A DNA stretch of 47,032 nt from Nitrososphaerales archaeon (GTDB lineage: Archaea > Thermoproteota > Nitrososphaeria > Nitrososphaerales > UBA213), in contig JBHICO010000004.1 in NCBI GenBank assembly GCA_046759645.1, positions 1 through 47,032 on the forward strand, written 5' to 3'. The notes below the pieces were generated by a model. The model was given only the letters and a program-made list of their open reading frames with translations, ran no database searches and was not told the origin of the DNA. Every line of letters begins with the position of its first letter. The stretch's first letter is position 1. The position numbers and the translations under genes are program-made. This document shows positions 20,268 to 23,474 of this stretch, in pieces.

Positions 20268-21100
20268 TCTACTCGTTTCCTTTTCATTCGAACGTACAAA
20301 ATGGCACTTACAATCAAGCCGCCAAGAACCAGAGCTATAATCGGCGATATAAGAGGACCAGTGTCTATCTCCATAGGAGCTACCTGCGTACTTACTGGAG
20401 ATGTTAATACTTTCCACCTCATTGTAAGATCTTCTGTTGGCGGAGAATCGAATTCCCAAACAGCTGCTTTCAGCGTAGTGCTAGTGGGTGAAATGGAATG
20501 ACCAGTAATCAGGCTATTATCGTGTTCCGAAGATATAACTATCTTTCCTACTGGGATCGACCATTTTGCAGCATTCGTAAGCATGAATGTAAAATCTTCT
20601 TCTATACTACCTACACCACTGTTCTCTACGTCTACGTCAAGAACATTCTCACTGTTGGCTTGCAAAACCATATTTAAGGTGAACAACCGCAGGCCTGTGC
20701 CCTTTTGGCGTGGGTTATCATATTCAACATCACTATAGTTCATGCTTATCCCATTTACCTTGAACTGCAGTGACTCTTCGTTCAATGATGTCGGTAGTGG
20801 TATTTTTAGAAACAGATCAACCTTTTCACTTGTTTCATTTTATAACACATATCGTGACTGTATGCTCATCAATATACTATGATGAGGCTCAAATCCTTCT
20901 ACTTCTCTAGACCATTGCGATTCGGTACTTATGCTAACATTAGCTTCCTTTAATGATACTCGTGCTTCTGTAACCGGATATGGAAGGCCAGCACTATCAC
21001 CAAACTGTATAAACGAGGTACCATATGCATGGCCTACAAATGATAATACAACGCTAAAAATCAATATTCTTTTGATCGATCTTGCAAATAGTAACAGCAT
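20261..21100 (-). pseudogene. secreted, C-terminally anchored protein interrupted by one in-frame TAA
   Basis: ORFs 20840-21100 and 20261-20785 share a frame and are joined by an open stretch: ...SRYVL*NETSEKVDLFLKIPLPTSLNEES... The first part carries a signal peptide, the second a TM segment and basic tail. Confidence 0.75.
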
Positions 21101-21159
21101 CGATATTTTACATCAGAAGGATTAAATAAAGATGCTCGATAGAGTTCTGCCTGATAGAT

Positions 21160-23380
21160 ATGCCGCGTTACAAGTCAACACAGGAAGCATTAAAGATCAT
21201 AGGCAATAAGGACCAAATTCGAATGGTGTAAAGGTAGCTCCTTTAGCCCGAATAATTTTGGTGTTATAGCTCATGTAGATCATGGAAAGACTACAATGAG
21301 TGATAGCTTGCTTGCAGCTACAGGGATGATCAGTCCCTCTGTAGCGGGTGAAGCATTAGCATTAGATTACATGGATTTGGAACAGCAAAGACAGATGACA
21401 ATCAAGGCGGCTAACGTTACCTTGTACTATGAAGAGAATGGTAAACCTTATGTTATGAATATGATTGACACTCCAGGACACATAGATTTCACTGGAAGAG
21501 TGACAAGAAGTTTGAGGGCCATTGATGGTGCAGTAGTTGTTTGTGACTCTGTAGAAGGCGTCATGACCCAGACGGAAACTGTTACTAGGCAGGCACTTGA
21601 AGAGCGGGTAAGACCAGTTCTTTACGTCAACAAGATAGATCGTTTGGTTAAGGAATTAAGATTGACACCTGAAAAGATGCAAGAGTGGCTGGCTGGTATA
21701 ATTGGTGATTTTAACAGGCTGATTGATATTTACGCTGAACCTGAACTGAAGGACAAGTGGAAGGTAAACATTCAGAATGATACTGTATCATTTGGTTCAG
21801 CAAAGGATAGATGGGGTTTCAATGCTGGCATTGCAGCAAAGAAAGGTATCAACTTTAGTGATGTTTACGAGACATATACATCTGGAGATCCTAAAACATT
21901 AGCAGAGAAAGCTCCGCTACATGAAGCAATTTTGGGAATGGTTGTTAAACACCATCCGCCCCCACATGTTGCTCAGCAGTACAGAATTCCTAGAATATGG
22001 AAAGGAGATCTAAATTCGGAAATTGGGAAAGCATTGGTCGAGTGTGACGAAAACGGTCCCATTATCATGATGGTTACAACCATCGTAGTTGATCCGCAGG
22101 CAGGGCCTGTGGCAGTAGGAAGATTGTTTTCTGGAAAAATAAGTGACGGCGATGAAGTTTATTTAATCGATTCTAAGAGGAAAGAAAGGATCCAATCTGT
22201 TAACATGTTTATGGGTCCGTATAGGGAGCTAGTCAGTTCACTTGGTGCCGGTAACATACCTGCATTGTTAGGGCTAGAACATGCAAGAGCTGGGGAAACA
22301 ATAGCCACCGTACAAGGTGTTGTTGCATTCGAATCGATCAAGTATGTGTCTGAACCCGTTGTTACGGTCGCAGTAGAACCAAAACACCCAAAGGATTTAC
22401 CAAAACTGGTTGAAACATTGAGGAGGATCAGCATAGAAGATCCTAACCTCGTAGTAAAGATCAACGAAGAAAGTGGTGAGACTCTTATGGCTGGTATGGG
22501 AGTCTTACACTTGGAGATCGCAACCACATTGCTCCAACAAGCGGGACTAGAGATAGTTACATCACAGCCATTGATCAATTATAGAGAGACTGTAAGAGCA
22601 ACTGCAGGTCCAGTCATGGCCAAGTCACCAAACAGGCATAACAAGGTATTCATAAAAGCAGAACCACTGGCTGAAGACGTTATAGAGTTGATAAGGACCG
22701 GCAAGATAAATGAAAACATGGACCGGAAAGATATAGGAAAGGTTCTGCGTGAGAAGGGTTGGGACGCAGATGAAGCGAGAAACGTAGTGGCAATAGAAAG
22801 TGGAAACCTCTTTGTTGACGCAACAAAGGGTGTTCAGTATTTGCATGAATCGATGGACTCCATAAAATCTGGTTTTACAGATGTTATGATAAGTGGTCCG
22901 ATGGCGCAGGAGCATTGCAGAGGCATAAAGGTTGTTTTAGATCACTTCGTTCCGCATGAAGACCCTGCGCACAGAACTCTTGCACAATTGATGCCGGCCA
23001 GTAGAAGATCCATCATGGGCTCTATACTTACAGCTAATCCTGTCTTACTGGAGCCCGTACTTGGTATCGAAGTAAAATGCCCGGCAGATATGATTGGAAC
23101 CGTTGCTGGTATATTGTCTGGAAAGCGTGGAAAGTTACTGAACGTGGATCAGAAAGGTGTCGTCGCAATTGTGCAAGGCGAAATACCAGCATCCGAAACT
23201 TTTGACTTGTCAGAAGCTATGCGAGGAGGCACAGCGGGCAAGGCATTGTGGAACACTCACTTCAAGTTGTGGCAAGCTCTACCATCATCGCTTCTTTTGC
23301 AAATAATCACAGAAATAAGGAAGAGGAAGGGTTTGAATCCCGAGCCACCAAGACCAGATGAATTTATAGACAAAGACTAG
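21160..23380 (+). CDS. fusA: translation elongation factor 2 (aEF-2), spliced: join(21160..21223,21255..23380), 729 aa
   Basis: Exon 1 encodes MPRYKSTQEALKIIGNKDQIR; exon 2 continues NFGVIAHVDHGKTT, DTPGHIDF, NKID and the diphthamide loop HEDPAHR. The ORF-track version (from 21296) lacks the P-loop. Confidence 0.95.
21224..21254 (+). other. 31-nt bulge-helix-bulge (tRNA-type) intron in EF-2 mRNA
   Basis: Central helix UUCG(21218-21)/CGAA(21249-52), 3-nt bulges AAU and UAA, inner stem GGU/GCC plus UAAAGG/CCUUUA, exon-exon stem ACCAAA/UUUUGGU. Canonical cuts restore the frame. Confidence 0.88.
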
Positions 23381-23474
23381 ATCCAAAATTTCTAAAGAAT
23401 TTATTCTAAAAATATATCTGAAATTATGTAAGTAGAAAACCGTTATATGTGATGAAATATCTAGTGCAACTGCA

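Follow-up and report, generated by a model that had tools for sequence, protein, structure and literature searches.

The gene for archaeal elongation factor 2 (aEF-2, here EF-2) on contig JBHICO010000004.1 of a Nitrososphaerales archaeon is interrupted close to its 5′ end by a 31-nt insert, which we read, with a probability of about 0.9, as a genuine archaeal pre-mRNA intron of the bulge-helix-bulge (BHB) type that would be spliced by the tRNA-splicing machinery. The window, that is, the whole stretch of DNA analyzed, covers positions 1 to 47,032 of this contig on the forward strand, and all coordinates count from its first letter. A preliminary description of the stretch had proposed splicing of the EF-2 mRNA, and the proposal is strongly supported by BHB-rule excision in 31 of 31 distinct sequences with an insert at this site, covarying helices, insert lengths in all three classes modulo 3, frozen exonic codons, a single EF-2 gene, and the presence of both the splicing endonuclease EndA and the ligase RtcB.

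As had been described, the ATG at 21160 opens a conserved EF-2 start that soon meets a stop: positions 21160 to 21231 translate as MPRYKSTQEALKIIGNKDQIRMV followed by a stop, with MV after the first 21 codons and then TAA at 21229 to 21231. The conserved continuation lies in another frame and, also as described, has no start codon before the P-loop. This exon-2 frame is offset by +1 from exon 1, reads NFGVIAHVDHGKTT / NFGVIAHVDHGKTTMSDSLL... from 21254, ends at the stop at 23378 to 23380, and has its first ATG, GTG, or TTG only at 21296, past the P-loop, in the open-reading-frame listing. Deletion of 21224 to 21254 joins the 64 nt of exon 1 to 2123 nt of exon 2 (21255 to 23377), and the resulting 2187 nt make up the 729 codons that the preliminary description had arrived at. 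The P-loop strand spans the exon junction, with ..DQIR joined to NFGVIAHVDHGKTT and a predicted junction peptide DQIR-NFGVIAHVDHGK. Exon 2 encodes the domains GTP_EFTU, D2, EFG_III, EFG_IV, and EFG_C, all five above their Pfam cut-offs, and the product has the full domain architecture of aEF-2. A second intact fusA beside a decaying copy had been named as grounds for rejecting the intron; the genome (163 contigs, 97.6% complete) holds one EF-2 gene with all domains intact, and the sole other match is weak and belongs to a different GTPase (E = 3e-5). The exons and the elements of the motif are as follows.

21160 to 21223, + strand: exon 1, running from the start codon through 21 codons (MPRYKSTQEALKIIGNKDQIR) to the first base of the Asn codon (frame translation; matches intronless aEF-2 N termini).
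21212 to 21217, + strand: 5′ strand (ACCAAA) of the outer exon-exon helix h (folding and base-by-base check).
21218 to 21221, + strand: 5′ strand (UUCG) of the central 4-bp helix H, in exon 1 (base-by-base check).
21222 to 21224, + strand: 5′ bulge (AAU), with the predicted cut at 21223/21224 (BHB rule; the blind deletion search described below agrees).
21224 to 21254, + strand: predicted intron of 31 nt, holding the in-frame stop TAA at 21229 to 21231 (frames and deletion search).
21225 to 21248, + strand: intron hairpin h′, made of GGU/GCC and UAAAGG/CCUUUA with the loop UAGCU (folding and base-by-base check).
21249 to 21252, + strand: 3′ strand (CGAA) of helix H, in the intron (base-by-base check).
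21253 to 21255, + strand: 3′ bulge (UAA), with the predicted cut at 21254/21255 (BHB rule and deletion search).
21257 to 21262, + strand: 3′ strand (UUUGGU) of helix h, in exon 2 (folding and base-by-base check).
21255 to 23380, + strand: exon 2, starting with the remaining two bases of the Asn codon and continuing with FGVIAHVDHGKTT... to the stop (708 residues).

All base pairs named in the preliminary description (outer stem, UUCG/CGAA, bulges, and hairpin) were found when checked base by base. Two 3-nt bulges, AAU and UAA, flank the 4-bp helix, the 3′ one having 4 nt in the best register, and both flanking helices reach at least 2 bp, with 6 bp in the outer stem (3 bp in the strict register) and 3 + 6 bp in the intron hairpin. 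The archaeal splicing endonuclease cuts after the second base of each BHB bulge, and cuts placed by this rule would yield the 729-codon aEF-2 with its conserved N terminus. The unconstrained minimum free energy (MFE) fold has −16.7 kcal/mol (z = −2.45; matched by 1 of 200 shuffles) and forms the outer stem and the hairpin; the full BHB conformer, at −15.0 kcal/mol, lies 1.7 kcal/mol above it. A loose BHB filter run over the same genome gave 24,007 matches among ~4.5e8 position-by-length combinations, or ~5e-5 each, and since the frame-restoring deletion has three equivalent placements, a chance BHB fit in the window alone would have a probability of ~1.6e-4. The only match to positions 21205 to 21268 in the genome was the self-match (blastn-short), and Rfam families matched neither the whole window at gathering scores nor 21100 to 21350 at E values up to 10.

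EF-2 loci were compared in two sets, the first of 30 loci from this genome and from 29 of 40 relatives searched in the same order, the second of 80 named loci from species-representative genomes, 77 of which were usable because three had no N terminus. In a blind deletion search, every stretch of 8 to 159 nt located 5′ of the MSDSLL anchor was removed, and the resulting 35 residues were scored solely by their similarity to an intronless N terminus. Inserts fell at two sites: site 1, at QIR/NFG, and site 2, in the Lys codon of HGK/TT. In the first set, 19 loci had an insert at site 1, 4 at site 2, and 7 had none; the corresponding counts in the second set were 24, 4, and 49, giving 43 site-1 and 8 site-2 inserts among 107 loci. 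Removal of 16 same-protein duplicates left 91 distinct EF-2 rows (31 with site 1, 8 with site 2, and 52 intronless), none of which had both sites filled. The preliminary description had suggested searching related EF-2 genes for covarying BHB inserts at the same position, and the 31 distinct site-1 sequences, drawn from several families, are such inserts. The excision dictated by the BHB rule was one of the equally best-scoring deletions in all 31, with the central helix 4/4 paired. An assembly or sequencing artefact in the contig, for which no supporting point was found, has a negligible probability given that the same-site insert recurs in 31 distinct sequences from independent assemblies, including 8/8 other genomes of the window's family.

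If EndA cut the motif and the exons stayed unjoined, the BHB would be a site of mRNA processing or decay rather than mark an intron, and its effect would be to reduce EF-2 output. BHB motifs are generally known to process RNA without exon joining as well, for example in rRNA precursors, but here the only copy of the gene could then give no P-loop-bearing EF-2, and an exact in-frame junction in 31/31 sequences would not be required. We regard this alternative as extremely improbable.

Inserts at site 1 range from 16 to 63 nt, and their lengths leave a remainder of 1 modulo 3 in 19 sequences, 0 in 10, and 2 in 2; those that keep the frame (0 modulo 3) carry stop codons. Only excision would serve inserts of all three classes, since no single frameshift, read-through, or hop can do so when the in-frame ones hold stops. 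This bears on translational recoding without splicing, in which the ribosome would pass the insert by a programmed +1 frameshift, stop read-through, or hopping of the kind known from T4 gene 60. On the 5′ side of NFG, the exon-2 frame stays open over 17 codons and overlaps exon 1, such that a +1 shift before 21229 would give a fusion with ~10 extra residues, and a hairpin with a nearby stop may resemble bypass signals. Yet close relatives would each need a different event, the frame relation differing among homologues. In addition, the CGA repeat at the two borders is out of register with the NFG frame, the variant in two relatives (L020 and L023, see below) and all site-2 inserts have no border repeats, the hairpin sequence changes freely while its pairing is kept, and it is in the BHB helix and bulge that synonymous exon sites are frozen. 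Recoding is very improbable on these grounds.

The pairing of the motif is conserved beyond its sequence. In a MAFFT alignment (A1) of the 31 distinct site-1 sequences, 88.2% of cells pair, versus 28.6 to 55.2% when the partners are slid by one to three columns. Changes on both sides occur in 8 pairs (48 cells), so that the structure is kept by compensatory change among relatives, and 0/500 shuffles reached the observed pairing or covariation score. Outer-helix cells are paired in 90.9% of cases, with A-U, G-U, and G-C variants, and cells of the intron-side helix in 83.9%; across relatives, 6/9 aligned pairs of the intron hairpin have changed on both sides. The outer stem occurs in the combinations CAA:UUU, CAG:UUU, and CAG:CUG, so that a synonymous Gln change accompanies a Phe-to-Leu replacement. 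The central helix is UUCG/CGAA in 29/31 sequences; the other two, L020 and L023, have CAGG/CCUG instead, one base further on, so that the cut falls in phase 2 of the Asn codon rather than in phase 1. Insert holders span at least 7 families, with EF-2 identities down to ~72%.

The exonic codons that lie within the motif are frozen in site-1 holders, with Ile as ATT in 28/30, Arg as CGA in 28/30, and Asn as AAT in 30/30, the two exceptions being the CAGG variant. At the matching positions, three different codons occur for Ile, six for Arg, and two for Asn among the 52 intronless sequences. Codon choice next to the motif is free in the holders themselves, as with Lys (AAG in 16 and AAA in 14). 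The 30 distinct exon-1 sequences have 13, 10, and 20 variable sites at codon positions 1, 2, and 3, and exon 1 has stop codons in the +1 (exon-2) frame in 30/30 of them. Together, the distribution of variation over codon positions and the stops in the exon-2 frame indicate that exon 1 is translated in its own frame and must be joined to exon 2.

Public annotation treats the gene in other ways. Among the public calls for insert-bearing EF-2 (P0004 to P0038), forms of 694 or 695 residues start at MSDSLL, without the P-loop, while forms of 719 to 727 residues translate the intron, and some start inside the intron frame; an NCBI multispecies Nitrosocaldus entry of 705 residues starts at the AHVDHGKTT stretch, inside the P-loop strand. 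Among the near-length matches listed at ≥80% identity, only truncated or intron-reading forms were seen, and no spliced form. Taken at face value, these calls would make the gene in the window a shorter EF-2, starting from ATG 21296 (694 aa) or within the insert frame, with the 21 codons as a separate open reading frame or leader, or else a decaying gene. In favor of this, 40/120 listed database relatives start past the P-loop and others inside the intron frame. However, a start at 21296 loses the P-loop (the GHVDHGKT region) that defines the GTPase, although NFGVIAHVDHGKTT is perfectly kept 5′ of that ATG with no start codon of its own. The coding character of exon 1 in its own frame is maintained across families, the only EF-2 gene in the genome has five intact domains, and insert-frame starts, which occur in some relatives, are absent from the window and thus not conserved. 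We therefore give very little weight to a gene without its first exon and favor a spliced EF-2. The erroneous public calls matter in their own right, because EF-2 serves as a phylogenetic and completeness marker.

Several observations count against a spliced BHB intron, or at least against a strict one. The best register of the outer stem leaves U21256 unpaired and produces a 4-nt 3′ bulge, a strict 3-nt bulge being obtained only with a slipped outer stem of 3 bp. The MFE fold does not contain the 4-bp central helix, and its z-score is modest. By a simple count of consecutive pairs, some relatives have weak helices (outer 1 and inner 2 in L010; inner 2 in L003 and L016), and L020 and L023 have no in-register outer stem. 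The compared sequences are kin, and the shuffle controls and codon tallies consequently overstate independence. RNA sequencing runs were sought for positions 21100 to 23400, and none was listed. Two protein searches were made, one with a near-length query and one with residues 1 to 150 for shorter proteins, to look for spliced-type proteins, whose most likely source would be cDNA. Neither list of 120 matches contained such a protein from this lineage, a blank that is not evidence since each search had at least 120 matches. Among the matches listed for residues 1 to 150, contiguous N termini belong to other, intronless lineages. Finally, with coupled transcription and translation, a ribosome would meet the motif within ~60 nt of the start, and folding and cutting would have to outrun it before it reaches the stop codon of the intron.

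The genome encodes the enzymes that such an intron would need. RtcB is present (contig C1; 593.8 bits), and two EndA paralogues, alpha- and beta-like, correspond to two PF01974 matches above cut-off, each with both Pfam endonuclease domains. The paralogue of 203 residues (contig C27) aligns to the Aeropyrum pernix catalytic subunit (E = 5.5e-42), retains the histidine of GPGIDHAP, and carries Lys at the sites equivalent to K44 and R46, which belong to the EndA loop that gives a broad substrate range (PMC3241643). The other paralogue (191 residues, contig C107) has no His at the position aligned with the catalytic one of Methanocaldococcus jannaschii EndA. Because a catalytic-type and a His-less paralogue are both present, the splicing enzyme is likely a heterotetramer of catalytic and structural EndA subunits. 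Intron-bearing tRNA genes are clearly present in the genome; ARAGORN flagged 18/53 tRNA predictions as intron containing, a noisy result with several implausible "introns" of 1,221, 1,673, and 148 nt. As for further mRNA introns, 1,181 of the 24,007 loose BHB matches would fuse open frames, and a tightened filter (helices of ≥4 bp, length of ≤80 nt) reduced the matches to 55, of which visual inspection found none convincing; without homology evidence, this screen is nondiscriminating and silent on other introns. The EF-2 site itself was recovered under the loose filter only, since its consecutive inner helix has 3 bp. The cbf5 gene (G000:C5:15567-16529) is one uninterrupted frame without stops that covers TIGR00425 positions 3 to 322.

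We infer that cleavage, ligation, and circularization take place in the cell in the following way. Transcription would begin from a promoter just 5′ of the ATG at 21160, for which there is one candidate.

21117 to 21132, + strand: putative promoter, with the B recognition element (BRE)/TATA-like sequence AAGGATTAAATAAAGA, ~30 to 40 nt 5′ of the exon-1 ATG.

The motif AAGGATTAAATAA at 21117 to 21132 is kept at an equal distance in relatives from the window's family (f1) and in Nitrosocaldus-type loci and is likely a BRE/TATA promoter; if so, the EF-2 leader would be very short. As the transcript folds, UUCG at the end of exon 1 would pair with CGAA at the end of the intron and set two 3-nt bulges four base pairs apart, and heteromeric EndA would cut at 21223/21224 and 21254/21255. 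RtcB would then join the exons and probably circularize the 31-nt intron. The spliced mRNA would give an EF-2 of 729 residues with the P-loop strand assembled over the junction, whereas unspliced RNA would give only a 23-residue peptide.

The content of the intron seems to be of little consequence. Ca. Nitrosothermus koennekii has a 16-nt mini-intron at site 1 (L037:987-1002; also G074:C9:34237-34266). Its hairpin has 3 bp and a loop of 3 nt, which makes it close to the smallest foldable BHB intron, and it would suit as a natural minimal substrate. Nitrosocaldus-type introns (L039, 45 nt; L040, 63 nt; L041, 45 nt; and G102) share a 10-bp hairpin base with AT-rich short-repeat expansions of the loop, which appears to evolve freely. 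The 16- to 63-nt length range, the repeat expansions of the Nitrosocaldus type, and the Nitrosothermus mini-intron together argue that selection may act on spliceability only and not on intron content. Enrichment cultures of Ca. Nitrosocaldus exist, and insert-bearing enrichments of this kind, together with the near-minimal 16-nt substrate, would make an easy experimental system.

The second site carries a BHB-type insert of 23 to 31 nt, located ~35 nt 3′ of the site homologous to window position 21224, which splits the P-loop Lys codon (HGK/TT). Its holders (L022, L026, L027, L029, L058, L078, L086, and L089) number eight distinct sequences and represent at least four sequence types. Their central helix, (A)CGG/CCG(U), has all 4 pairs in 5 of the 8 sequences, 3 pairs in 2, and 2 pairs in 1. 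Excision by the BHB rule restores GKTT in 8/8, and the poor exon-side stem marks this as a relaxed motif; the helix-forming codons are CAC in 8/8 and GGA or GGG in 8/8. The two insertion sites are independent. This second site, like the wide distribution of the first, lay outside the preliminary description.

The 3′ end of the same gene is also a site of insertion, as thaumarchaeal ef-2 3′ ends are described as the commonest integration target of casposons (PMC6563490). With BHB inserts at its 5′ end, ef-2 is thus an insertion hotspot in two unrelated respects.

An exact IUPAC site-1 pattern, with the gap limited to inserts of ~16 to 46 nt, was run on 401 genomes of the order and gave one match each in 26 of them; a reversed control gave 0. 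By family, the pattern was found in 8/8 other genomes of f1, 9/11 of f8, 4/4 of f13, 2/2 of f18, 1/1 of f7, and 1/1 of f10, and in three large families in 0/97, 0/112, and 0/112. The well-studied loci of Nitrosopumilaceae-like and Nitrososphaera-like type have neither the site-1 nor the site-2 insert. The proteins of the Ca. Nitrosomirales DSS1 and SAT137 loci are identical to those of f1 genomes, and f8-type loci are named Nitrosocaldus or Nitrosothermus. SAT137 and DSS1 belong to Nitrosomirales, an order sister to Nitrosocaldales, according to the accessible portion of PMC10811736. With Ca. Nitrosomirales and Nitrosocaldaceae as the nearest named relatives, the thaumarchaeal placement given in the preliminary description stands.

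A quick, unrooted FastTree phylogeny of the 91 distinct EF-2 rows placed the Nitrosomirales and Nitrosocaldus/Nitrosothermus lineages together in a clade (support of 96) whose 18 rows all have the intron. Its sister clade of 24 rows, with names in Nitrososphaera, Nitrosotalea, and Nitrosotenuis, is without the insert. Across the remaining half, rows with site 1, with site 2, and without an insert are intermixed, and at least 10 state changes are needed overall. The simplest reading is an old site-1 intron with several losses, as far as an unrooted tree can suggest. In one intronless sequence (L018, from genome G013 of family f6), the Ile-Arg-Asn-Phe-Gly codons are the exact nucleotides that precise excision at site 1 would leave. 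This state would fit intron loss via a spliced RNA copy, which is speculation; CGA is used in 6/52 intronless sequences, and the match could be due to chance.

It is possible, although we consider it unlikely, that the EF-2 intron is an ancient and selectively kept checkpoint that ties elongation capacity to the EndA/RtcB capacity for tRNA splicing and RNA ligation. Such a role would fit the presence of the intron in every sampled genome of two basal ammonia-oxidizer lineages and in several non-oxidizer lineages. It would also fit a second site 35 nt away in other lineages, with the two sites never together, and the fact that both fall at the P-loop strand, less than 100 nt into the coding sequence. 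If this were true, the EF-2 intron would be an archaeal counterpart of regulated unconventional splicing of the HAC1/XBP1 type, and BHB introns in protein genes would be commoner in archaea than the single textbook case.

No description of an archaeal EF-2 intron was found in the open full-text literature, with subscription journals and supplements, where annotation remarks might stand, beyond reach. In a study of aEF-2 evolution (Narrowe 2018, PMC6143161), "intron" occurs in the reference list only, and neither "intron" nor "elongation factor" appears in the Nitrosomirales paper (PMC10811736). The preliminary description knew of no intron in EF-2 and named crenarchaeal cbf5 as the main host of archaeal mRNA introns.

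The closest known systems include the BHB introns of pre-tRNAs and of cbf5 pre-mRNA. Pre-tRNA BHB introns (hBHBh′) have the same layout as the EF-2 intron, in which the exon strand of the 4-bp helix pairs with the intron's 3′ end and the cut sites lie two bases beyond each helix strand in the 3′ direction, and the same enzymes, EndA and RtcB, are expected to act on them. The EF-2 intron differs in being an mRNA substrate without a tRNA body, and its synonymous sites are frozen because the exon parts of the motif also encode Ile-Arg-Asn-Phe-Gly. For cbf5, splicing and cleavage by EndA have reportedly been shown experimentally (Yoshinari 2006), whereas for EF-2 they are predicted. The cbf5 introns of Crenarchaeota (Watanabe 2002; Yoshinari 2006; Yokobori 2009, PMC2738675) resemble the EF-2 intron in being short, in lying in coding sequence, and in sometimes having a relaxed BHB at their borders; they also occur in organisms with heteromeric EndA, have a patchy distribution with gains and losses, and are often missed or misread by annotation (PMC2738675). 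The EF-2 intron does not belong to the cbf5 type, as the genome's own cbf5 is uninterrupted and its relatives are Nitrososphaerota. In EF-2, the host is the translocase, the lineage is Nitrososphaeria (Nitrosomirales/Nitrosocaldaceae-like) rather than Desulfurococcales or Sulfolobales, and there are two sites ~35 nt apart in different lineages.

The BHB intron in the 5′ untranslated region of HVO_1309 in Haloferax volcanii is likewise an mRNA substrate of EndA outside tRNA and rRNA, as given in the accessible part of Schwarz 2020 (PMC7714728). It differs from the EF-2 intron in that it lies in an untranslated leader of a euryarchaeon, where no reading frame is interrupted. Besides HVO_1309, the cbf5 mRNA intron was the only one reported as of that paper (PMC7714728), which leaves crenarchaeal cbf5, since 2002, as the sole reported host of a BHB intron within an archaeal coding sequence. 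The splicing of HAC1 and XBP1 is comparable in being independent of the spliceosome, with an endonuclease acting at paired stem-loops and a tRNA ligase (RtcB in animals) joining the ends, and in changing the frame in a way needed for the active protein (partly general knowledge, partly the available portion of PMC13149111). These mRNAs differ in their endonuclease (IRE1), in their RNA motif, and in belonging to a regulated stress response, whereas regulation of EF-2 splicing is conjecture only. Compared with these systems, what is new here is a second host gene, an essential translation GTPase, in a different phylum-level lineage that includes both basal ammonia-oxidizing orders, and with two insertion sites. 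Splicing of archaeal mRNA by the tRNA machinery would then be no oddity of one gene.

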